In this document: positions 5,778 to 17,967 of the stretch, one piece after another | Position numbering within the stretch: the first letter of the stretch is position 1 | How the letters are laid out: each line of letters begins with the position of its first letter | From: Dehalococcoidia bacterium | GTDB lineage: Bacteria > Chloroflexota > Dehalococcoidia > Lucifugimonadales > UBA3495 | Direction: 5' to 3' | DNA: 64,000 bases | NCBI GenBank assembly: GCA_965243255.1 | Contig: CBDEUH010000004.1 | Span: 1,790,979-1,854,978, forward strand | Position numbers and translations under genes: made by a program | The notes under the pieces: model-generated | Told to the model about the DNA's origin: nothing | The model's input: the letters and a program-made list of their open reading frames with translations, nothing else | The model's database searches: none

Positions 5778-6465
5778 TAATCCGGACGGCGGCAGCGTCG
5801 CCATTGCCGCCGCCGGCATCCGCAAGGAGTACGGGGACCGGGCCGTGCTGCGGGGCGTTGACCTGACGGTAGGCTGGGGCGAGATAGCCGTGCTGTTCGG
5901 GGCCAACGGGGCGGGCAAGACGACGCTGCTGCGCATCCTGGCCGGGCTGACGCGGGCGGACGGCGGAGCGGTCCGGCTGGCGGGACGGCCGATGCATCGC
6001 CGGGGGAACCGGGCGCGCCGGCTGGTGGGGTTCGCCGGTCATCAGACGATGCTGTACAACGACCTGACGTGCCGGGAGAACCTGGCTTTTTACGCCCGGC
6101 TGTACGGCATCCGGAACGCGGGGCGGCGGATTGATGACGCGTTGGGTCAATTGCACCTGTCGGACCGGGCCAACCGGCGGGTGCGCACGCTGTCGCACGG
6201 GATGCAGAAGCGGCTGGCCATGGCGCGGGCGATATTGCACGAGCCGGAGGTGCTGCTGCTGGACGAGCCGGAATCGGGTCTGGACGGAGCGTCGGTGGAG
6301 ACGCTGGGGGAGCTGCTGAGGGAGTGGGCGGCGTCGGGGCGGGCGGCGCTGCTGACGACGCACAGTATTGAGGTGGGGCTGGCCTGGGCGCATCGGGCGT
6401 TGACGCTGGAGGGTGGTCGGGTGAGCGGGGTTGCTCCCGCTGATCCTTCGACAGGCGCAGGATGA
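5761..6465 (+). CDS. ccmA: Heme exporter ATP-binding protein CcmA (ABC ATPase)
   Basis: Walker A GANGAGKTT, signature LSHGMQKRL, Walker B LLLLDEP. First gene of the ccmABCDE order. TTG start overlaps the preceding gene by 17 nt, so the start is uncertain. The last ~10 codons lie in a palindromic repeat. Confidence 0.7.
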   Translation: MSITADNPDGGSVAIAAAGIRKEYGDRAVLRGVDLTVGWGEIAVLFGANGAGKTTLLRILAGLTRADGGAVRLAGRPMHRRGNRARRLVGFAGHQTMLYNDLTCRENLAFYARLYGIRNAGRRIDDALGQLHLSDRANRRVRTLSHGMQKRLAMARAILHEPEVLLLDEPESGLDGASVETLGELLREWAASGRAALLTTHSIEVGLAWAHRALTLEGGRVSGVAPADPSTGAG

Positions 6466-6472
6466 GCGGGAG
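6434..6472 (+). repeat. Palindromic element, family B (CTCCCGCTGATCCT-11 nt-AGGATGAGCGGGAG)
   Basis: 14-bp arms with one mismatch. Overlaps the last codons and the stop of ccmA. Confidence 0.8.
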
Positions 6473-6502: not shown

Positions 6503-7177
6503 ATGGAACTGTTGCGGGGGACGCTGGCGATTGCGTGGAAGGACGTTCGGCTGGAGCTGCGCTCCCGGGACGTCATCACGTCGGCGCTGGTGTTCGGGCT
6601 GATCGTGGTGGTGGTGTTCAACTTCGGGTTGAACCGGGCGCCGGGGAGCTTGGCTCCGGTGGCGCCGGGTTTGTTGTGGGTGGCGTACGCATTCATTGGG
6701 GTGCTGGCGATGAACCGGGCCTTTACGCGGGAGCTGGAGCAGGGCGGGATGGACGGGCTGCTGCTGGCGCCGGTGAGCCGGGACGCGGTGTTCCTGGGCA
6801 AGATGCTGGGGAGCTTGATTTTCATGCTGGTGATTGAGGCGATACTGCTGCCGGTGTTCGCGGTGATGCTGGACCTGCCCACGCTGTCGCCGACGCTGGG
6901 TCTGGTGATACTGCTGGCCACGGTGGGGTTTGCGACGGTGGGGACGTTCTTCGCGGGGATTGCGGTGCAAACGCGTTCGCGGGAGATACTGCTGCCGGTG
7001 CTGTTCTTTCCGGTGATTGTGCCGGTGATCATCGCTGCGGTGGAGGCGTCGGCGCTGGTATTGCAGGGTGGGCCGATGACAGGGGTTTGGACGCGGTGGC
7101 TGCCGCTGCTGGTGGTATTCGACGCGCTGTTTCTGGTAATATGTCCGTGGATTTTCGGGTTCATTTTCGAGGGATAG
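6503..7177 (+). CDS. ccmB: Heme exporter membrane protein CcmB
   Basis: ATG 6503 chosen (MELLRGTLAIAWKDVRLELRSRD…). Polytopic membrane protein typical of CcmB, positioned between ccmA and ccmC. Confidence 0.75.
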   Translation: MELLRGTLAIAWKDVRLELRSRDVITSALVFGLIVVVVFNFGLNRAPGSLAPVAPGLLWVAYAFIGVLAMNRAFTRELEQGGMDGLLLAPVSRDAVFLGKMLGSLIFMLVIEAILLPVFAVMLDLPTLSPTLGLVILLATVGFATVGTFFAGIAVQTRSREILLPVLFFPVIVPVIIAAVEASALVLQGGPMTGVWTRWLPLLVVFDALFLVICPWIFGFIFEG

Positions 7178-7183
7178 CGTAGA

Positions 7184-7924
7184 TTGGCGGCGATAGCAGG
7201 CCAACCGACGAGCAAGAGACCCAGGCGCGCGGCGATACGAGACGCGCGCTTTTGGCTGTTGCTGCTGGCCGCCGCGCTGACGCTGGTGGACGGCTACCTG
7301 ATTTTTGTGGTCGCGCCGACTGACTGGGTCCAGGGACACGTGGGAAGGACGCTGTACGTCCATGTTCCGATATCGATCCTGTCGTTTTTGGGGTTCCTGC
7401 TGTGCGCCATCGCGGGCGTCGGCTACCTGATACGGCGCAGCGAGGGTTGGGATCGGCTGGCTCACGCTGCCGCCGAGGTGGGCGTGGTGTTTGTGACGCT
7501 GGCGCTGCTGACTGGCATCATCTGGGGGAAGCCCATCTGGAACGCGTGGTGGCAGTGGGATGCGAGGCTTACTACTACTCTCATTCTCTGGTTCATCTAC
7601 GTGGCCTATTTGATGATACGGCAGTACGCGCCGACGCCGCAACAGGGCCGTGTCTGGTCGGCAGTGGTGGGCATCATTGGTTTCGTTGACGTGCCCATCG
7701 TGTACTTCTCGGTGAAGTGGTGGCGCACGTTGCATCCGGAGCAGGTGATCGGGCCGGCGGCGGCTGAGGGAAGCCTGGAGCCGATAGTGGCGCGCATCCT
7801 GATATTCTCGCTGGGGGCGATGCTGGCGCTGTTTGCCTATCTGCTGCTGGAGCGGATGGCGCTGCGAAAGACCGAGGACACGCTGGCGCAGTTGCGTCGA
7901 GAGGCGAATCTGGACCAGGCTTAG
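7184..7924 (+). CDS. ccmC: Heme exporter / heme lyase protein CcmC
   Basis: Contains the WWD-type tryptophan-rich motif WGKPIWNAWWQWDARLT and conserved His residues. TTG start at 7184. Confidence 0.85.
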   Translation: MAAIAGQPTSKRPRRAAIRDARFWLLLLAAALTLVDGYLIFVVAPTDWVQGHVGRTLYVHVPISILSFLGFLLCAIAGVGYLIRRSEGWDRLAHAAAEVGVVFVTLALLTGIIWGKPIWNAWWQWDARLTTTLILWFIYVAYLMIRQYAPTPQQGRVWSAVVGIIGFVDVPIVYFSVKWWRTLHPEQVIGPAAAEGSLEPIVARILIFSLGAMLALFAYLLLERMALRKTEDTLAQLRREANLDQA

Positions 7925-7942: not shown

Positions 7943-8140
7943 ATGACGGACATACCATCGGACAACCTGCCGCATCTCTTTGCCGCCTTCGCCATTGTGT
8001 GGGTGGTGTTTTTCATCTACGCCGGGTATATGTCGTGGCGGCGGCGGTCGGTGCAGCAGGAGCTGGAGGAACTGCGGGAGTCGGGGGAGGATGAGGAAGG
8101 GCGGGTCCTTCGACAGGCTCAGGATGAGCGGGAGCAGTAG
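7943..8140 (+). CDS. ccmD: Small single-TM protein, CcmD-like
   Basis: 65 aa with one hydrophobic helix (LFAAFAIVWVVFFIYAGYM) followed by a charged tail. Lies between ccmC and ccmE. The C-terminus (…LRQAQDEREQ) is encoded by a repeat element. Confidence 0.5.
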   Translation: MTDIPSDNLPHLFAAFAIVWVVFFIYAGYMSWRRRSVQQELEELRESGEDEEGRVLRQAQDEREQ

Positions 8141-8162
8141 GGTACAGGATGAGCGGGAGCAG
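8107..8162 (+). repeat. Family B element, partial, with duplicated right arm
   Basis: tccttcgacaggctcAGGATGAGCGGGAGCAG…tacAGGATGAGCGGGAGCAG. Supplies the C-terminus and stop of ccmD. Confidence 0.7.
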
Positions 8163-8214
8163 CAGGGTATAATGGGAAGACGAAGCCGGGCCCGTTGAGG
8201 ACGTACCGAAGCCA

Positions 8215-8778
8215 ATGCAGTCTGAGAACTACACCGACCAACCGGGGGAAACGATAGCCCCGTACCTGGAAGCCGATGCCGGCGAGGAGCGCTCCGGGTG
8301 GCGCAGCCATCGGGTGCGGCTGGGCATTCTGGCCGGCGTGATTGCGTTGGCGGTGGCGTATATGGTGTATGCGGCGTTTCCGGGGAACACGCTGTACTTC
8401 GTAACCGTGAGCGAGTTTGTGGAGGACCCCAGGCTGCACGACGGGCAGACGCTGCGGGTGGCCGGGGCGCTGTCGCCGGACAGCTTCCGGCGGGAGGACG
8501 GATCCGCGGTGTCGCGGTTCGCCCTGGGGGACAAGGAGCCGGACGTGCCGGGGATCGCGGCGGGCAGTCCGGAGATGGCGGCGAGCTATGTGGGGGTGCT
8601 GCCGGACCTGTTCTTCAACCCACACTCGGAGATCATCCTGGAAGGCAGCTACGACGGGGAGAGCGGCGTCTTCGTGACGGACAACATCCTGGTGAAGTGT
8701 CCGTCGAAGTACCAGTCGCTGCAGGCGGAGAATCCGGACGTGGTTCCGGGGGCGGCGGTTCCGCAAGGCGGGTATTGA
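8215..8778 (+). CDS. ccmE: Cytochrome c maturation heme chaperone CcmE, Cys-type (CxxxY) variant
   Basis: N-terminal TM anchor, OB-fold core (…LRVAGAL…ILEGSYD…GVFVTDNILVKCPSKYQS) with C-P-S-K-Y where canonical CcmE has H-x-x-x-Y. Confidence 0.75.
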   Translation: MQSENYTDQPGETIAPYLEADAGEERSGWRSHRVRLGILAGVIALAVAYMVYAAFPGNTLYFVTVSEFVEDPRLHDGQTLRVAGALSPDSFRREDGSAVSRFALGDKEPDVPGIAAGSPEMAASYVGVLPDLFFNPHSEIILEGSYDGESGVFVTDNILVKCPSKYQSLQAENPDVVPGAAVPQGGY

Positions 8779-8808
8779 GGTTAGGGCAGCTGGGATGCGA
8801 GGTGGGCG
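8748..8808 (+). repeat. 61-bp direct repeat, copy 1 (flanks protease cassette)
   Basis: 59 of 61 positions identical to 9447-9507. Contains the ccmE stop (8776-8778) and a copy of the vapC 3' end. Confidence 0.9.
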
Positions 8809-8811
8809 ATT

Positions 8812-9054
8812 ATGTTTGAGACGCCAACGACTATTGACAACGTAGGGAAACGTGGCCAAGCCGTGTACGACGAAAACATACGGCATTTGGTGGAGTCGGA
8901 GCATCACGGCCGGTTCATAGCGGTGGAGCCGGACAGCGGCGACTATGTGATTCGAGACCGAATTGTGGACGCCCAGCTTGACATGCAGGCCAAACGACCC
9001 AACACGTATTCGCACATCATTCGCATTGGCCACAAGGCCGCCATCATCAGGTGA
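8812..9054 (+). CDS. Small conserved partner protein of retropepsin-like protease (function unknown)
   Basis: 80-aa ORF starting 3 nt after the first copy of a 61-bp repeat. The …HGRFIAVEPDSGDYVI…IIRIGHKAA pattern is recalled from small genes found upstream of clan-AA proteases. Overlaps the next ORF by 4 nt. Confidence 0.55.
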   Translation: MFETPTTIDNVGKRGQAVYDENIRHLVESEHHGRFIAVEPDSGDYVIRDRIVDAQLDMQAKRPNTYSHIIRIGHKAAIIR

Positions 9055-9437
9055 GGGCTGTGGTTAGCGGAAGCATCAATCGGGCGGGACAGGCGATGTT
9101 GCCGCTAGCCGTGCAGGGTGTAGCGCGGCAACGATTCATCACGTTCAACTTCAACGTGGATACGGGATTCAACGGCGACTTGCAGTTGGCCGTTGCAGAC
9201 ATTGGCAGGCTGGAGTTGACTCCGGCAGGAATTGCCAATTCGCAATTGGCTGACGGGCAAATTGTTGAAGATAGAACGTACCCGGCGACAGTTCTGTGGT
9301 TGGGAACTCCTACGGCAGTGAACGTGATTGAGTCTGCAAATAACATCTCGCTAATTGGGACGGGGTTGCTTTGGGGGAGCGTGATGACTGTGGAGTGGGA
9401 GTTTGGCGGCAGCGTGACGGTTGAGCCGATTGCCTGA
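9051..9437 (+). CDS. Clan AA (retropepsin-like) aspartic protease
   Basis: 128 aa with catalytic VDTGFNGDL (D-T-G) and a downstream …LIGTGLL flap/dimer motif. Lower GC than neighbours. Confidence 0.7.
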   Translation: MRAVVSGSINRAGQAMLPLAVQGVARQRFITFNFNVDTGFNGDLQLAVADIGRLELTPAGIANSQLADGQIVEDRTYPATVLWLGTPTAVNVIESANNISLIGTGLLWGSVMTVEWEFGGSVTVEPIA

Positions 9438-9446
9438 ACCGGGATT

Positions 9447-9507
9447 GGGGGCGGCGGTTCCGCAGGGCGGGTATTGAGGTTAGGGCGGCTGGGATGCGAG
9501 GTGGGCG
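9447..9507 (+). repeat. 61-bp direct repeat, copy 2
   Basis: Contains the functional vapC 3' end (stop 9480-9482, minus strand) and a copy of the ccmE tail. Confidence 0.9.
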
Positions 9508-9923
9508 GCGTTTAGCGGGTCCAATCTTTGGAGCCAGGGAATGCGGTCGAGGTTCTGGTCGGCGGAGACGATGCGGTCGGTGCCGACGCGCTGCATGACG
9601 GCGGCGTGGAAGCAGTCCCGGGCGCTGACGCCGGCTTGCTGACCGACCATTTCGGCGGCGCGGAGGGCATCCTCCGGGTGGACGGATTCGATGCGCCCGC
9701 TCATCACGGCGGCGAAGCGGTGGAGCACCTGGTAGCCAAGCTGCCAACGATTGCGGGCACTGTAGTAGTGGATGAGTTCCTGCAAGACCTCGGCGCTGGT
9801 GAGGAAGCTTTCCGGGCGCTGGGCCGCCAGTCGCAGTATCCGCAGCGCGGGGTCTTTGAGAGGGTGGGCGGTTCCGGCAGCATAGATGGGAATGTTGGCA
9901 TCAACGAAGTAGGGGCGGTTCAT
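9480..9923 (-). CDS. vapC: PIN-domain toxin VapC
   Basis: 147 aa with N-terminal FVDANIPIY acidic motif, …SAEVLQEL…, …ARDCFHAAVM… and …IVSADQNLDR, typical of the PIN fold. Overlaps the upstream antitoxin gene by 23 nt. Confidence 0.8.
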   Translation of the reverse strand: MNRPYFVDANIPIYAAGTAHPLKDPALRILRLAAQRPESFLTSAEVLQELIHYYSARNRWQLGYQVLHRFAAVMSGRIESVHPEDALRAAEMVGQQAGVSARDCFHAAVMQRVGTDRIVSADQNLDRIPWLQRLDPLNAAHLASQPP

Positions 9924-10152
9924 GGGCAGCCTCGAGGACTTCGCGGAGTTGCATCGGGTCCTCCGGCACTTCCAGGGACATGGCAGCCAGGTCCCCGACG
10001 GCCTGCAGCCTCTGCCGGCTGACGGCGTCGCGGTGGGCGTTTTCGATCAGAGTGCGGATTACCGCGGAGGCGGACATTCCACGGGAGGCGGCCAGCTGGC
10101 TCAGCTGTTCGCGGAGCTTGTCGTCCAGCCTGACCTCGAACCTGGTAGCCAT
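9901..10152 (-). CDS. vapB: Ribbon-helix-helix (CopG-like) antitoxin VapB
   Basis: 83 aa with N-terminal beta-strand plus helices (RFEVRLDDKLREQLSQLAASRGMSASAVIRTLIE), directly upstream of vapC. Confidence 0.7.
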   Translation of the reverse strand: MATRFEVRLDDKLREQLSQLAASRGMSASAVIRTLIENAHRDAVSRQRLQAVGDLAAMSLEVPEDPMQLREVLEAAHEPPLLR

Positions 10153-10223
10153 CTCTTTACCCCTTCAACATACGTACAAATTGATACGGGTATAATGATA
10201 CGGCATTGGTGAGAAACAGGAAA

Positions 10224-10246
10224 GCCCCCGGCGCGGCGGCGGGGGC
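10224..10246 (-). terminator. Hairpin + T-rich tract after korB
   Basis: gcccccg…cgggggc, followed on the minus strand by tttcctgtttctc. Confidence 0.5.
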
Positions 10247-10273
10247 CTGGGTTGCGGTGGTTTGGGTTGGGGG

Positions 10274-11140
10274 TTAGAAGGTGTAGGCGTCCATGAGCTG
10301 TTCGACGGTGCGCTCGCGGGCCTTGCCGCGGATGATGCCCATGTTGGCGTCTAGGGACTGGCGGGTCTCATCCTTGTAGATGATGCCGACGGGGAGGCCG
10401 CCGCGCTGGACCAGTTCCTGGGCCGCCTGCTTGCTGCTGGCGTCGTGGTCGTCGGGGATGTCCCACAGCGCGGGGGCGATGCCTTCCTTGGGGTTGCCCT
10501 TGATGAGCTGGTAGGTGTCGTTGTAGGTAACGCAGGGGGACTGGACGTGAATCATGGACATGCCGTCGTGGTTCATGCCTTCGTTGATGAGCTGGGCGAG
10601 CACGCGGGGCTGTCCGGAGAAGCCGGAGGCGATGAAGGAGACGCCCAGGGTGAGGTAGAGTTCCAGGGGGTCGAGGTCTTCTTCGATTTTGCCGAAGGGG
10701 GTGCTGCTGGTGATGGCGCCCATTTCGGTGGTAGGCGAGCTTTGGCCCTTGGTGAGGCCGTACACGCCGTTGTCCATGATGACGGCGGTGATGTTGAGGT
10801 TGCGGGCAGCCTGGGGGGCGATGTGCTCGCCGCCGATGCTGAGGAAGTCGCCATCGCCGGCGACGACCACGACGTTGAGCTCGGGACGGGCCATCTTGAC
10901 GCCGAGGGCGACGGGGAGGGTGCGTCCGTGGATGCCGTGGATGCCGTAGGGCTGCTGGCCTTCGAGGAGGTGAACGAGGTTGCCGCTGCAGCCGATTCCG
11001 GCGACGACGACGTTGTTCTCGATGGGCAGGCCGGTTTCTTCCAGCCGGTTAATCATGGCGAATTCCAGGGCGCGACGCACGCCGAAGTCGCCGCAGCCGG
11101 GGCACCACTTGAAGTCGTATTCGGGGTTCTTCTTGCTCAT
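10274..11140 (-). CDS. korB: 2-oxoacid:ferredoxin oxidoreductase, beta (TPP-binding) subunit
   Basis: 288 aa with N-terminal WCPGCGDFG Cys motif and TPP motif GDGD…; 4-nt overlap with the alpha subunit. Confidence 0.9.
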   Translation of the reverse strand: MSKKNPEYDFKWCPGCGDFGVRRALEFAMINRLEETGLPIENNVVVAGIGCSGNLVHLLEGQQPYGIHGIHGRTLPVALGVKMARPELNVVVVAGDGDFLSIGGEHIAPQAARNLNITAVIMDNGVYGLTKGQSSPTTEMGAITSSTPFGKIEEDLDPLELYLTLGVSFIASGFSGQPRVLAQLINEGMNHDGMSMIHVQSPCVTYNDTYQLIKGNPKEGIAPALWDIPDDHDASSKQAAQELVQRGGLPVGIIYKDETRQSLDANMGIIRGKARERTVEQLMDAYTF

Positions 11141-12846
11141 ACCCGCGCTGCCTCCGTGTGCTCAGACACAATATTTTTGACTTTGGACACCAGATCGCTG
11201 ACCTTGAAGGGCAGGCCGGTGTATTGGGTGATTGCCTGGGCCCTGACGCCTTCGGAGCGCAGGATGCCGGCCCATTGGCCCTGGTAGTTGAGTTCCGGCA
11301 CGATGACCAGATCCTTGCTGCGCAGTTCCTCCAGCAGGCGTGGGGGCAGCGGGTGGAGGAACATGGTGAAGTACCAGCCGACATCGACGCCCTGCTCGCG
11401 CAGTTCGTCGAAGGCTTCCCGGGCCGGGCCCTTGGAGCCGCCCCAGGACATGATGGCGATGCTGGCGGCGTTGTTTTCGGCTTCGTAGTTGTCCTCTTCC
11501 AGGAGCTTGAGCTTGCTGAAACGGCGCTCGGTCATCTGGATGTGGCGGCTGGGCAGGTGGGTGGTATCGCCCATTTCGTCGTGCTCGCTGCCGTTGGCGA
11601 CGTAGGCGCCGGGGCCGCCGGGCAAGGGCATGGGAGACAACTCGTGGCCGGAATAGCGGTGGTAGCCGTTGCTGCCTTCGTAGGTGAGACGTTCCTCCAC
11701 CGGGATTTTGTTCAGGTCGGGCCGGGGGATGTTCTGGACGCGTTCGGCCATGGACATTTCGCTCATGAGGATGACGGGCCCCTGGTAGCGTTCGGCCCAG
11801 TTGATGGCGTGGGCCGCCGCGACGAAACATTCTTCCACGGAACCGGGGGCGATGATGGGCATTCGGACGTCGCCGTGGGCGGGATACATACAGCCCATGA
11901 GGTCGGACTGCTCGGTCTTGGTGGGCAGGCCGGTGGCGGGGCCGCCGCGCTGGACATCGACGACGACGAGGGGGATTTCGGCCATCCAGGCCAGGCCGAG
12001 GCCCTCGCTCATGAGGGAGATACCGGGGCCGGCGGTGGCGGTCATGGATTTCTTGCCAGCGTAGCCGGCGCCGAGGATGGCGGTGATGGCCTCGATTTCG
12101 GAGGAAACCTGATAGGCGAACTTGTCCTCACCGACCAGGTTGCGCTCCATCCAGAGGAGGATGGTGGTGGCGGGCGAGATGGGATAGCCGGCGTAGAAGC
12201 GGAGGCCGGCGTGGGTGGCGCCGAGGGCGATGGCCTCGTTGCCCTTGAGCATCATCTGCTGGTAATCGGGCGGGTTGGGAGGGGCGAGGTCGCCGAGGAC
12301 AAAGCCGCTTTCGGCGGCGTTCTGCCGTCCCAGCCGCATGGCTTCGATGTTGGATGAGATGATTTCGTCGTCGTTGTCGCGGCCGCGGCGGAAGCGGGCT
12401 TCGACGAAGTCTTCCAGGTACTGCTGGGGCATATGGACGAGTTGGGCGAGGGCGCCGATGACGACCATGTTAGCGGCCCGGTTATTGCCGGTGGAGCGGG
12501 CCAGGGTATCGATGGCGAGGCCGAAGGACCGGGGGTCGGTCATGGTGAAGTCGTCGGCGTTATAAATAATAACCCCGCCGTCGCGCACTTCTTCGGCGTG
12601 GGTTTCGTAGGCTTCTTCGTTGAAAGCGACCAGTACATCCACCTGGTCGCCGGAGCTCAGTACGGGCTCGGTGCGGATGCGGGCCTGGGTCCAAGTGGGG
12701 CCGCCGAGGATCTGTGAGGGGAAGGTGGCGTAGGTGAGGGCGTGGTAGCCGACCTGGGTGGAAGCCTGGGCCAGACCTTCCGCCGAGGTAACGACGCCCT
12801 GGCCACCTTCACCGGCGAACCGGACGACGAAGTCGTTCATTTGCAT
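11137..12846 (-). CDS. korA: 2-oxoacid:ferredoxin oxidoreductase, alpha subunit
   Basis: Start set at ATG 12844-12846 (MQMNDFVVRFAGEGGQGVV…) with GGAGGAA RBS upstream. Fused gamma-like and alpha domains typical of KorA. Confidence 0.9.
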   Translation of the reverse strand: MQMNDFVVRFAGEGGQGVVTSAEGLAQASTQVGYHALTYATFPSQILGGPTWTQARIRTEPVLSSGDQVDVLVAFNEEAYETHAEEVRDGGVIIYNADDFTMTDPRSFGLAIDTLARSTGNNRAANMVVIGALAQLVHMPQQYLEDFVEARFRRGRDNDDEIISSNIEAMRLGRQNAAESGFVLGDLAPPNPPDYQQMMLKGNEAIALGATHAGLRFYAGYPISPATTILLWMERNLVGEDKFAYQVSSEIEAITAILGAGYAGKKSMTATAGPGISLMSEGLGLAWMAEIPLVVVDVQRGGPATGLPTKTEQSDLMGCMYPAHGDVRMPIIAPGSVEECFVAAAHAINWAERYQGPVILMSEMSMAERVQNIPRPDLNKIPVEERLTYEGSNGYHRYSGHELSPMPLPGGPGAYVANGSEHDEMGDTTHLPSRHIQMTERRFSKLKLLEEDNYEAENNAASIAIMSWGGSKGPAREAFDELREQGVDVGWYFTMFLHPLPPRLLEELRSKDLVIVPELNYQGQWAGILRSEGVRAQAITQYTGLPFKVSDLVSKVKNIVSEHTEAARV

Positions 12847-14848: not shown

Positions 14849-14963
14849 TGTGGGTGGGTGGGTTTGCGTTGACCGATTGGCGATGGTGGGTTAGATTCAG
14901 GGCTGGCACGGGGAGGCAGAGCGTTATCCCGTGCGAGTTGCCGAAGGATGGAGGACGATCGCT

Positions 14964-15734
14964 ATGCCGTTTTACGAAAGAGGCGCGACCCGCATTTATT
15001 ACGAAGAGGTGGGATCGGGGTTTCCGCTGCTGATCATTCCGGGCGGAGGGCTGGTGAATTCCACGGTGGAGGGGCTGAGAACCTCGCATCCGTTCAATCC
15101 GCTGGAGACGTATGGGGGCGACTTCCGCTGCATTGCGTCGGACCTGCGGAACGCACCGAACGGGCAATCGACCGGGCCGCTGGAGATTGACCGGCCCTGG
15201 GACGCGTTCACCGACGATCAGATCGGGCTGATGGACCACCTGGGCATCGACAAGTTCGGGGTGATTGGCTTCTGCATCGCCGGGCCGATGATACTGAACC
15301 TGCTGAGCCGGGCCGGTGGGCGAGTGGTGGCGGCGGCGCTGATGCAGCCCAGCGGGTACCGTCCGGAGCTGCCGGATCTGTTCTATCAGAACAACATCAC
15401 GGGCTGGGGGCCGCCGCTGTGCGAGCAGAGGTCGGACATCACCATGGAGATGGTGCACGACTTTTTGACGAACATGTACGTGAAGCGGGCGGATTTCGTG
15501 TTCACGGTGTCGCGGGAGTTCGTGAGCGGGCTGCAGACGCCGCTGCTGATCGCGCCCGACGACGTGCCGGCGCATCCGTACGCGCGGGCGATGGAGGTAG
15601 CCAACCTGGCGCCGAACTCGGAGGTAACCATCTATCCGTGGAAGGACACGCCGGAGCACACCGCCGAGGTGGTGGCGCACGGGCGTCGGTTCCTGAAGGC
15701 GCATACGCCGGCGGCGGTGGGGGCGGCGGACTGA
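14964..15734 (+). CDS. Alpha/beta-fold hydrolase
   Basis: ATG 14964 with AAGGATGGAGGA RBS upstream. MPFYERGATRIYYEEVGSGFPLLIIPGGG…, nucleophile-elbow-like GFCIAG. Confidence 0.75.
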   Translation: MPFYERGATRIYYEEVGSGFPLLIIPGGGLVNSTVEGLRTSHPFNPLETYGGDFRCIASDLRNAPNGQSTGPLEIDRPWDAFTDDQIGLMDHLGIDKFGVIGFCIAGPMILNLLSRAGGRVVAAALMQPSGYRPELPDLFYQNNITGWGPPLCEQRSDITMEMVHDFLTNMYVKRADFVFTVSREFVSGLQTPLLIAPDDVPAHPYARAMEVANLAPNSEVTIYPWKDTPEHTAEVVAHGRRFLKAHTPAAVGAAD

Positions 15735-15789
15735 CGGGGGGTTATCGAGGCGCTTGCGGGCATCGGCGTGGGATGTGTATCATAGGTGT

Positions 15790-15993
15790 ATGGCACGCAC
15801 CAACGTTGATATAGACGACCAGGCTTGCGCCGAGGTAATGCGGCGTTATCGGCTCCCTACGAAGCGGGAGGCCATCAACTTCGCTCTGCGAACGCTGGCG
15901 GCCGAACCCGCTTCGGTGGATGAGGCGCGTTCGATGCGGGGCATCGGATGGGAGGGCGACCTGGACGGGATGCGCGCGACTCGCGCACCGTGA
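15790..15993 (+). CDS. vapB: VapB-family type II antitoxin
   Basis: MARTNVDIDDQACAEVMRRYRLPTKREAINFALRTLA… is the typical VapB (MT-type) N-terminus. Its stop overlaps the GTG of the downstream vapC remnant (GTGA). Confidence 0.75.
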   Translation: MARTNVDIDDQACAEVMRRYRLPTKREAINFALRTLAAEPASVDEARSMRGIGWEGDLDGMRATRAP

Positions 15994-16165
15994 TACTGAT
16001 CGACACCTCGGCCTGGGTGGAATTTCGGAAGGGGAGACGGTACGGAAGTTGATGGACTGTCTCATCGGGGCGATAGCGATCCGGGCCGGGGTTCCCATCC
16101 TGCACAACGACGGGGATTACGACGTGCTGGCGCGCCACACCGAATTGCGAGTTTACGGGCGCTAG
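15990..16165 (+). pseudogene. vapC: vapC (PIN toxin) remnant with internal out-of-frame deletion
   Basis: Frame 0 reads VILIDTSAWVEFRKGRRYGS-stop (16050-16052). Frame 2 continues …GETVRKLMDCLIGAIAIRAGVPILHNDGDYDVLARHTELRV. These are the N- and C-terminal PIN segments; the ~70-80 central codons are missing. Confidence 0.7.
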
Positions 16166-16227
16166 GGTTGTGGCCGCAGATCTGAAGGGTGTGCCGGCGG
16201 CGGTGGGGGCGGCGGACTGACGGGGGG

Positions 16228-17967
16228 TTATTGGTCGATGCGGCAGCTGATGATGTCGAGGCCGTAATACTTGCGGTGGTGGACGGACGAGGCGTAATGG
16301 CGCAGGATGCGCACCGATAGCTGGCGTTCATCTTCCAAAGCGTGCTGGTCGCCCAGGTAGGCGATCTGGTCTTCGATATTGCCCTGGATGGCGTCGTGGG
16401 CGGCGACCATGATTTCGAGGTCGGCGGCGGCGCCGTCCGGGCGGATTGAGGCGATGAGGCGACGCTGCTGATCTTCGGGGCCGTGGTTTTCTTCCTGGAG
16501 CAGGCTGAGCACGGCCTCTTCGCCGACCAGACGCAGGCGGTTTTTGCCGACTTCGGTCCAGGAATGGCGGTCGGCGAACTGGGCGAGGAAGTCGTCGATG
16601 GCGGGCAGTGAGGACTGGGACAGGTCGATGCGCAGCTTGCGGGCGCGGAGGGCCGGCAGTTCGGTGAACAGGGTCATCACGATGGCGACCAGGCCGCCAA
16701 CGACGATGGTGTTGCCCACCAGGTGGCTGGATATGGTCCCTTCGACGAAGCCGCTGAGGACGCCGGCGGACAGGCCCAGGACGGTGGAGACGCCGGCGAT
16801 GCCGGCCTTTTTGTGGTCGATGGGGCCGGTGAAGACGGACTTGGCCCCCTCGACGAAGAGGGCTCCGAAGATGACGATATAGACGGCGCCGACGACCTGG
16901 CTGGGAACGGCGGTGAGGATGGCGAGGAGCTTGGAAAAGGGCGCCACGGCGATGGTGAACAGCCCCAGGTAGAGGCCCACGCTCCTGGCGGCGACGCCGG
17001 TGAAGCTGATGTACACCACGGTGGTTACCCAGGGCGCGGCCACGGGCAGGGTGCCGAGGAGACCGGAGAGCAGGGTTCCGATTCCGTACACGTTGAGTCC
17101 GCCCTGGACCTTGCGGAAGTCGATGGCGGCGAGATTGCGGCGGGATGCGGCGTAAACGATGGAAAGGTCTCCGGCCACCTTCATAAAGGCGGTAAGTTTG
17201 ACGAAGACGAAGACGGGAAGCAGGGTCCAGAAATCGGGGCCGAAGGTCAGGTCCAGTCCGGGCCACTGGAGATGGGGCAGGCTGAGCCAGGGCGCATCGA
17301 GGATGATGCCAACGTCGTAGAAGCCCAGGGGGACGGCGACCAGCAGGCCGACCATCACCATGCCGGGCAGGATCCACATGCGCCAGGCCGGGGAGTCTTT
17401 CATCAGGATGAAGGCGCCGGCGGCGAGGGCGGCGACTCCGGGGGCCAGGAAGAGGGCGGTTGAGGTGTCTTCGGGCTGAACGACGCCTCGGCTGATGATG
17501 AAGGGGACGGCGGAGATGGCCACCAGCATGACGATGACGCCGCTGACCGTTTGGGTGAAGATGCGACGCAGGGAGGCGAGGCGGAAGGTGAGAACGGTTT
17601 GGAGCAGGGTGGAGACGACGACGAGGGTGGCGAGGAGGCCGGGGCCGCCGGTATGGAGGGCCAGCACGGAGACGGCCAGGAAGGGCACGTTGAAGTTGCA
17701 GACGACGAGGCCGCCGGAGCCGAGATAGCGCAGCTGGATTGCCTGCAGGATCATGGCGACGCCGGAAGCGGCGAGGACGGTGAAGGTGGCCCAGGCGAGA
17801 TAGGCGTCGGACTGGCCGGAGGCGCGGACGACGAGGCCCACCAGCATGACCAGTCCGATGGTGTTGGGAACGAAGATCTGCAATGCCGAGGTAATACTCA
17901 GCAGAGGCGGGCACTGATCATCCGGCTCGAAGCGAGGGCCATGTCGCGCCTGGGCATCCCTGGACAT
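16228..17967 (-). CDS. Polytopic permease (NCS2/xanthine-uracil-permease-like) with ~130-aa cytoplasmic C-terminal domain
   Basis: 579 aa, with ~12 hydrophobic segments followed by a soluble tail (…LRIDLSQSSLPAIDDFLAQFADRHSW…RILRHYASSVHHRKYYGLDIISCRIDQ). Family assignment is by eye only. Confidence 0.55.
   Translation of the reverse strand: MSRDAQARHGPRFEPDDQCPPLLSITSALQIFVPNTIGLVMLVGLVVRASGQSDAYLAWATFTVLAASGVAMILQAIQLRYLGSGGLVVCNFNVPFLAVSVLALHTGGPGLLATLVVVSTLLQTVLTFRLASLRRIFTQTVSGVIVMLVAISAVPFIISRGVVQPEDTSTALFLAPGVAALAAGAFILMKDSPAWRMWILPGMVMVGLLVAVPLGFYDVGIILDAPWLSLPHLQWPGLDLTFGPDFWTLLPVFVFVKLTAFMKVAGDLSIVYAASRRNLAAIDFRKVQGGLNVYGIGTLLSGLLGTLPVAAPWVTTVVYISFTGVAARSVGLYLGLFTIAVAPFSKLLAILTAVPSQVVGAVYIVIFGALFVEGAKSVFTGPIDHKKAGIAGVSTVLGLSAGVLSGFVEGTISSHLVGNTIVVGGLVAIVMTLFTELPALRARKLRIDLSQSSLPAIDDFLAQFADRHSWTEVGKNRLRLVGEEAVLSLLQEENHGPEDQQRRLIASIRPDGAAADLEIMVAAHDAIQGNIEDQIAYLGDQHALEDERQLSVRILRHYASSVHHRKYYGLDIISCRIDQ

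Follow-up and report, generated by a model that had tools for sequence, protein, structure and literature searches.

Insertion with long target duplication (Nobusato, 2000, Gene 259:99; Furuta, Abe & Kobayashi, 2010, PMC2853133), for which further precedents have been cited (Mruk & Kobayashi, PMC3874152; Lim, 2012, PMC3457768), is known mainly for restriction-modification genes, and the Kobayashi group suspected that double-strand DNA breakage by the cargo itself drives the insertion (PMC2853133). Its footprint is a small, selfish-type gene unit without a mobility gene, bracketed by direct repeats of more than 30 bp that vary from site to site and are unique to the locus; a related genome carries a single copy at an empty site, the repeat can reach into the 3′ end of a neighbouring gene and the composition of the insert departs from that of the host. 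Here, we describe a locus that matches this published phenomenon in an uncultured, sponge-associated member of the Dehalococcoidia (SAR202). In the stretch analysed, a window of 64 000 nucleotides from contig CBDEUH010000004.1, a 638 bp cassette of two genes (orf80 and orf128) lies between ccmE and a convergent vapC gene and is bracketed by a 61 bp direct duplication made of the ends of these two genes. What is new here is a well documented instance with an unusual cargo, an unusual host and a natural polymorphism.

Two further processes offer partial parallels. Homology-facilitated illegitimate recombination, reportedly described by de Vries & Wackernagel in 2002 and by Prudhomme et al. in 2002, classically yields an insertion together with a deletion of recipient DNA and not a duplication, which sets it apart from the window. 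What the two have in common is that homology anchors one end, an illegitimate joint forms at the other and no enzyme supplied by an element is needed, a scheme that suits a donor cassette flanked by ccmE/korB homology. The process is known from naturally transformable bacteria (PMC3240628). Pneumococcal merodiploidy is an analogy only. The duplications there are large and are said to use long repeats, and those described here measure 31–88 bp. The 2013 account by Johnston and coworkers reportedly rests on a geometry with two sister chromatids, which would account for foreign DNA being bracketed by a duplicated target. In Streptococcus pneumoniae, transformation yields partial chromosome duplications, that is, merodiploids (Johnston et al., 2013, PMC3784515).

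The two copies of the repeat, at 8748–8808 and 9447–9507, are identical at 59 of 61 nt according to a repeat search and a script run on the window, with mismatches at 8766/9465 (A/G) and 8788/9487 (A/G). Copy 1 consists of the real tail of ccmE (8748–8778, the last 31 nt of the gene, encoding ...AAVPQGGY with the stop codon at 8776–8778) followed by a 30 nt copy of the vapC tail (8779–8808). This relic is the present spacer between ccmE and orf80 and provides a Shine–Dalgarno-like sequence, GAGGTG, upstream of orf80. Copy 2 consists of a noncoding relic of the ccmE tail (9447–9477) and the real 3′ end of vapC (9480–9507, minus strand, encoding ...AHLASQPP with the stop codon at 9480–9482). The insert between them (8809–9446, plus strand) contains orf80 (8812–9054, plus strand, 80 residues), the ATG of which lies 3 nt past copy 1 at 8812, and orf128 (9051–9437, plus strand, 128 residues), the stop codon of which (9435–9437) lies 9 nt ahead of copy 2; the cassette meets the ccmE-tail relic at 9446/9447. 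A previous sequence-only reading of the region had proposed that each copy preserves one gene end and that the insert holds exactly two open reading frames with these 3 and 9 nt spacings, all of which is borne out by the coordinates and translations. Its count of 59 matches and its first mismatch are also correct, but its second mismatch, given as 8787/9486, is off by one.

The repeat cannot be due to chance: its 32 nt core occurs at only two places in the window, and shuffling gave a match in none of 100 trials. A search with the 61-mer in 87 related loci found ccmE tails only. At the second mismatch, the A of copy 1 (8788) agrees with locus L001 and with strain X, the nearest strain, found in metagenome runs X1–X5; the G at 9487 is therefore the newer state.

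Relatives were assembled in a ccmE-based scan that gave 80 loci from SAR202/Dehalococcoidia genomes, many of them sponge-derived, to which further loci (L081–L087) with the same kind of cassette were added. The empty site predicted by the sequence-only reading, where the repeat is present once, exists in three of the sequences compared. L001, the sister of the window in the KorAB tree (support 99/98), and the more distant L008 both have the order ccmE–vapC–vapB–korB without the cassette, and a 10.5 kb contig from sponge metagenome run X8 skips the insert, with ccmE abutting vapC and a single copy between them. Furuta et al. looked for a related uninterrupted site with one copy to which both repeats align; here, L001 is matched by window segments 8000–8809 and 9447–10300, the alignments of which coincide over one repeat copy at 6534–6595. 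They also asked for a direct repeat of more than 30 bp around the insert, and the values found are 61 nt at this locus, 39/39 at a second site in the window (15707/16193) and 63/65 in locus L006. Restriction-modification cargo was a criterion of their survey and not of the mechanism.

The cassette is foreign, because its synonymous divergence (dS) is about three times that of the flanks and its G+C content deviates, and vapBC and the backbone are vertical. Counting gives a G+C content of 55.3% for the insert against 62.9–66.5% for the flanks, in agreement with an earlier judgement by eye, and the G+C content at third codon positions is 0.64–0.69 against 0.79–0.90 around it. Comparison with L081 and L082 gives dS values of 0.71–1.16 for the cassette and 0.24–0.35 for the flanks, while comparison with L001 gives 0.37–0.45 for vapBC and 0.20–0.27 for the flanks. 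In blastn alignments, homology to L081 and L082 spans the region from the ATT-ATG at 8809 to ACCGGGAT at 9445.

In most of the 80 loci, ccmE and korB are convergent and separated by a gap of 75–225 bp. The gap is found in several states among the relatives: empty, with vapBC (type A), with a DUF5678-like gene and a retropepsin gene (type B, the class to which the insert belongs by blastn match, G+C content and dS) or with a gene for an NYN-domain protein. The NYN-domain gene occupies the gap in L010, and both cargoes are present in L006. All relatives of the cassette that could be placed (47–75% amino-acid identity; L004–L007, L013, L019, L024 and L081–L087, with a decayed copy in L015) sit between ccmE and korB; in L004–L007, L013, L019 and L024 the first cassette gene bears two orf80-like domains. 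The closest homologues of orf128, those of L081–L087 (65–75% amino-acid identity), show the order ccmE–orf80–orf128–terminator–korB. Because the cargo states are scattered patchily over the KorAB tree and the relatives all lie in one gap, this gap behaves as a cargo slot with exchangeable alleles, in which the window carries two alleles stacked on each other, vapBC (type A) and the cassette (type B). The idea that an insertion left its footprint where the convergent ends of ccmE and vapC abut thus holds, with the empty site in hand, but the cargo does not look like a roaming cassette, since relatives of it were found in the ccmE/korB gap only. Scans of metagenome contigs with VapC and with orf128 gave no matches.

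The same kind of footprint recurs. An exact 39 bp duplication in the window (15707–15745 and 16193–16231) brackets a 447 bp insert, the whole spanning 15707–16231, with an intact vapB gene (15790–15993; VapB_antitoxin, 9.4e-14) and a vapC gene that has suffered an internal deletion. Copy 1 bears the stop codon of a hydrolase gene (14931–15734, plus strand) and copy 2 that of a convergent transporter gene (16228–17967, minus strand). In runs X1 and X4 the contig of main depth skips exactly 486 nt, which corresponds to the insert plus one 39 bp repeat, and run X2 holds both forms, at a depth of 7.7 with the insert (no mismatches) and 54.7 without it (about 12% against 88%). This case is a presence/absence polymorphism in natural populations. 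In L006, a 65 nt direct repeat (63 of 65 identical; 7528–7592 and 8461–8525) brackets the NYN-domain gene, for which L010, with the NYN allele alone, serves as the comparison. The repeat can be followed leftwards to a length of about 88 nt (from about 7505/8438) through a terminator hairpin, so that the terminator and the last nine codons of korB are duplicated. In all, approximately 1 Mb of sampled sequence holds three events.

Some further observations concern these repeats. The loops of the two hairpin copies in L006 are nearly reverse complements of one another. L032 has a 93 nt direct repeat (92%; 8808–8900 and 9264–9356, 363 bp apart) beside another NYN-domain gene (8097–8645), where one copy forms the genuine 3′ end of a gene on the minus strand and the second is a relic. 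A 32 bp repeat in L025 was rejected as an example of the same phenomenon, as it is the common C-terminus of tandem paralogues. Both duplications in the window start (8748–8760 and 15707–15720) with a G-rich sequence that contains the 9-mer GGCGGCGGT and encodes Ala-Ala-Val; as a shared signal it carries no weight, since it was noticed post hoc and occurs 15 times on the plus strand and once on the minus strand of the window, and it is probably a coincidence. At 11230–11800 in L010, a vapB remnant with 88% amino-acid identity to the second vapB of the window lies in another slot and is followed by a Phd/YefM-like antitoxin gene, and a possible tRNA-like stretch was seen by eye at about 12300–12390.

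For the 61 bp duplication, we consider it moderately likely that homology-assisted illegitimate recombination or template switching stacked a type-B cassette from the same slot on a type-A allele, in an insertion with long target duplication. The window lineage would have begun with the type-A allele, its ccmE and vapC stop codons 2 nt apart, and the recombination machinery of the host would have taken up a divergent type-B cassette. At the right, the end of the cassette, 9 nt past the orf128 stop codon, would have been linked to ccmE 31 nt ahead of its stop codon, and the resulting joint at 9446/9447 is clearly illegitimate. At the left, the cassette would meet the chromosome at 8808/8809, exactly where the likeness between type A and type B ends, following about 30 nt that form the vapC tail in type A and are similar in sequence to the ccmE–orf80 spacer of type B. 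Sequence of the AGGAGGG/GAGGTGGG type is present both in type-B spacers and in the vapC tails of L001 and the window, which suggests that the two stretches are homologous between the alleles. The 61 nt segment is doubled since, in chromosome coordinates, the right joint falls 61 nt upstream of the left one; a right joint in such a position requires the target to be available twice, so two sister chromosome copies would probably be involved, or else a template switch, with no part for a transposase or integrase. The donors, both here and in L006, would have held their cargo in the same slot, so that homology of the flanks would align donor and recipient. The repeat, the empty site, the alleles of the slot, the foreign origin of the cassette, the lack of recombinase signatures and the recurrence are observed; the mechanism of joining is what we infer, and the 61 nt may or may not have arisen in one step.

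Several points weigh against this scheme. The true donor allele is absent from the sampled sequences, no microhomology could be established at the right joint, and the homology between the vapC tail and the type-B spacer rests on about 20 nt. The duplication demands more than simple recombination with one duplex, by a pathway that is without experimental demonstration in this phylum. No indexed public run contains the left junction in the version of the window (8765–8860), and a raw-read run (X15, host Hi-C) has no reads on the locus. For the 39 bp case no allele of that slot is known, and a relative of its vapB (88% amino-acid identity) lies elsewhere in L010, so stacking of alleles fails as an explanation there. 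Finally, the window differs from strain X by 11 nt of indels and seven substitutions within 8780–8844, so that the left junction of one of the two lineages has been remodelled, and the repeat is only 31 nt long in strain X.

The comparison with strain X is central to the main rival explanation. Its flanks are 96–97% identical to those of the window, and it shares the cassette and the right joint with the window; in runs X1–X5 the cassette has the depth of the flanks and no contig with an empty junction was found. Its copies share exactly one 31-mer (9448–9478), which is the ccmE tail; this 31-mer occurs at twice the depth of the flanks, therefore indicating two copies. As reconstructed from the listed differences, the 30 nt vapC relic is replaced in strain X by a 22 nt ccmE–orf80 spacer, GCAGGGATGCGAGGAGGGGATT, of type-B character, which resembles the type-B spacers of L086, L007 and X13 contigs. 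Only two differences between the window and strain X fall within 8845–9486 (about 640 nt), with flanks that differ by about 3.3%. Because the differences cluster at 8780–8844 and the core is nearly identical, the cassette core has been shared recently between the strains, and a recombination patch marks remodelling of the left junction on one side. The earlier statement that the duplication is far longer than the target duplications made by transposases stands, but a 61 bp target duplication made in a single step is not required, as a strain with 96–97% identity repeats the 31 nt ccmE tail only.

An origin in two steps would accommodate these data and is possible, although we regard it as unlikely on balance. 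An ordinary event of homology-facilitated illegitimate recombination would have duplicated only the 31 nt ccmE tail, through a left crossover inside ccmE and the one illegitimate joint at 9446/9447, with the 22 nt spacer of the donor kept as it is in strain X; later, in the window lineage only, gene conversion primed by the 31 nt identity would have copied the 30 nt vapC tail over the spacer and lengthened the repeat to 61 nt. The single shared 31-mer at double depth and the type-B-like spacer of strain X both fit this course, as does the relic at 8779–8808, which is identical at 30 of 30 positions to the vapC tail of strain X (itself reconstructed from the listed differences) and hence young. 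Conversion from copy 2 in the window lineage would explain the relic only, however, and cannot account for six substitutions at 8817–8844 in orf80, beside the spacer. We lean towards a single homologous patch, received by strain X from a common type-B strain, which would explain the spacer and the orf80 substitutions together and would make the 61 bp state the older one. The exact 39 bp case, moreover, shows that duplication of both gene ends in one step is possible. Another course, in which both cargoes are ancestral and the repeat arose by local tandem duplication and subsequent replacement (Lim et al., 2012, pathway ii), L001 and L008 being deletions between the repeats, is improbable. Direct repeats of 31–61 nt can mediate deletion, the cargo states are patchy on the tree and the 39 bp case can be read equally well as a loss through its repeats, but a cassette with about three times the dS of its flanks and a different composition has not co-evolved with the backbone. 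In addition, the distant L008 has vapBC without the cassette and with the same ccmE/vapC junction, and more steps would be needed.

Integrases classically leave direct repeats by which the ends of target genes are restored, and the cassette core is near-identical between strains with more diverged flanks. Both features would be expected if a tyrosine or serine recombinase with its gene elsewhere had integrated the cassette site-specifically; the repeats would then be attL and attR, and the cassette together with one repeat would form a small excisable circle. We nevertheless hold this to be very improbable. The repeats vary in length from site to site (31, 39, 61 and 65–88 nt), and comparison of the three cases (the 61 bp and 39 bp duplications of the window and that of L006) revealed no shared core at the junctions. 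The insert has no terminal inverted repeats, and the repeats fold no better than shuffled sequences (z-scores of 0.17 and 0.85), which rules out a hairpin of the attC or terminator type. As stated in the sequence-only reading, no recombinase gene is present: orf80 and orf128 are the sole open reading frames of the insert, and neither the insert nor its neighbours ccmABCDE, vapBC and korAB, which are syntenic in relatives, include a transposase or integrase. The cassette, furthermore, has been seen in one slot only, and in X1–X5 it has the depth of its flanks with no empty-junction contig. A transposon or insertion sequence was rejected for want of inverted repeats and a transposase and on account of the variable duplication (31–88 nt). 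An integron cassette would share with the locus a small promoterless unit behind a transcribed gene, as well as direct repeats that restore gene ends, but here the repeats copy local gene ends and there is no attC-like fold, shared core or integrase in the neighbourhood, and this type was likewise rejected. A Campbell-type circle carrying the 61-mer was set aside, as it presupposes a donor that already had the arrangement. An artefact of assembly or polishing in the source metagenome-assembled genome would agree with the lack of an indexed run with the 8765–8860 version of the window. It is nonetheless extremely improbable, given five independent runs that agree in cassette and right joint and repeat the ccmE tail at twice the depth of the flanks, two copies that differ at two positions, and the agreement of the A at 8788 with strain X and L001.

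Stacking of a same-slot cassette by the host thus remains the reading that we prefer, and it departs from the cases surveyed by Furuta et al. in several respects. The cargo is a DUF5678-like and retropepsin pair, a vapBC remnant or an NYN-domain gene and not a restriction-modification system, its source in two of the three cases is another allele of the slot that it occupies, and the host is an uncultured sponge-associated SAR202 bacterium. Insertion driven by DNA breakage does not suit a retropepsin pair or vapBC. Given three events among roughly 1 Mb of sequence, including one that is still polymorphic, and a cargo (the retropepsin pair and vapBC) that has no evident DNA-cutting function, a recombination pathway of the host is likelier than one driven by the cargo. 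The movement of chromosomal toxin–antitoxin and small defence modules without transposases or integrases is poorly understood, and the same footprint is seen here around cargo that does not evidently cut DNA, in an uncultured sponge symbiont and in a slot between convergent genes where alternative alleles are exchanged and stacked, with natural before-and-after pairs on hand for working out the mechanism. Tentatively, and with less confidence than we attach to the reading of this one locus, SAR202 and similar bacteria may possess a general recombinase-free route by which mini-cassettes for toxin–antitoxin or defence functions enter tight junctions of convergent genes through offset joining to two sister chromosomes. 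Such a route would duplicate a stretch of 30–90 bp with both stop codons and damage neither neighbour, would let slots such as ccmE/korB gather and exchange cargo, and would explain the spread of toxin–antitoxin modules without mobile elements.

The two cassette genes have dN/dS values of 0.08–0.26 and are both under purifying selection. The GTG start codon of orf128 overlaps the stop codon of orf80 in the 4 nt GTGA, indicating translational coupling. A scan by simple consensus located neither a promoter nor a terminator inside the cassette, and we infer that this promoterless unit downstream of ccmE would be read from the ccm operon. orf80 is distantly DUF5678-like: one of ten family members matches DUF5678 (E = 0.032), and orf80 alone has no match in Pfam or PADLOC and none in a profile search against the PDB. 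A fused tandem duplication of an orf80-like protein, about 175–180 residues long, precedes the retropepsin gene in L004, L005, L006, L007, L013, L019 and L024 (at about 6585–7125 in most).

orf128 is predicted to be a clan AA aspartic protease with the retropepsin fold, on the basis of both its modelled fold and its Asp-Thr/Ser-Gly motif. It matches TIGR03698 at 1.6e-9 with 38 bits, below the model cutoff of 57; among 31 homologues Asp37 and Thr38 are invariant and Gly39 is near-invariant. The AlphaFold model has a predicted local distance difference test score of 90.6, and its top Foldseek matches are the retropepsin-like protease of Rickettsia conorii (PDB code 5c9f; 6.8e-6) and HIV-1 protease (about 3e-4). 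The Rickettsia enzyme, which is free-standing, is like orf128 in its retropepsin fold with a DTG motif and differs in being membrane-associated; it is not known to belong to a two-gene cassette. In its small sizes, its GTGA overlap and its use of a slot that is otherwise occupied by vapBC, the orf80–orf128 pair resembles type II toxin–antitoxin modules of two small, translationally coupled genes, a likeness that here concerns architecture alone.

The remaining features of the region are conserved to varying degrees. ccmE (8215–8778, plus strand; Pfam CcmE, 1.4e-17), of the Cys type with the motif CPSKY, is the last gene of ccmABCDE, with synteny in 80 related loci. The vapC gene (9480–9923, minus strand) encodes a PIN-domain toxin (Pfam PIN, 6.5e-14) and is 90% and 85% identical in nucleotides (90% and 88% in amino acids) to the vapC genes at the same position in L001 and L008, respectively. 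Its last ten or so codons (9480–9507) lie outside the PIN domain, and in comparison with L001 and L008 their DNA resembles the ccmE–orf80 spacers of cassette-bearing genomes, including the Shine–Dalgarno-like AGGAGGG, so the tail may have descended from such a spacer. Next to it is a vapB-type ribbon–helix–helix antitoxin gene (9901–10152, minus strand; Pfam RHH_1, 2.8e-7). A G+C-rich hairpin or terminator segment before the korB stop codon (10222–10273) is common to the type-B loci and forms the right-hand homologous border of the slot; the alignment of the window with L081 and L082 resumes from 10222, within an inverted-repeat arm at 10217–10240. korB (10274–11140, minus strand), which encodes the beta subunit of a 2-oxoacid:ferredoxin oxidoreductase, is the conserved right flank of the slot.

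Other repeats occur around the ccm genes. A dispersed repeat, CCTTCGACAGGC.CAGGATGAGCGGGAG, is present at 6439–6472 and 8101–8169, with a 25 nt tandem at 8120–8169; it overlaps the ends of ccmA and ccmD and is matched by many unrelated contigs of high depth in X1–X6. Large near-identical direct repeats of 62–301 nt lie upstream of the ccm genes in L013 (3423–4195), L021 (3529–4246) and L063 (6677–8426).

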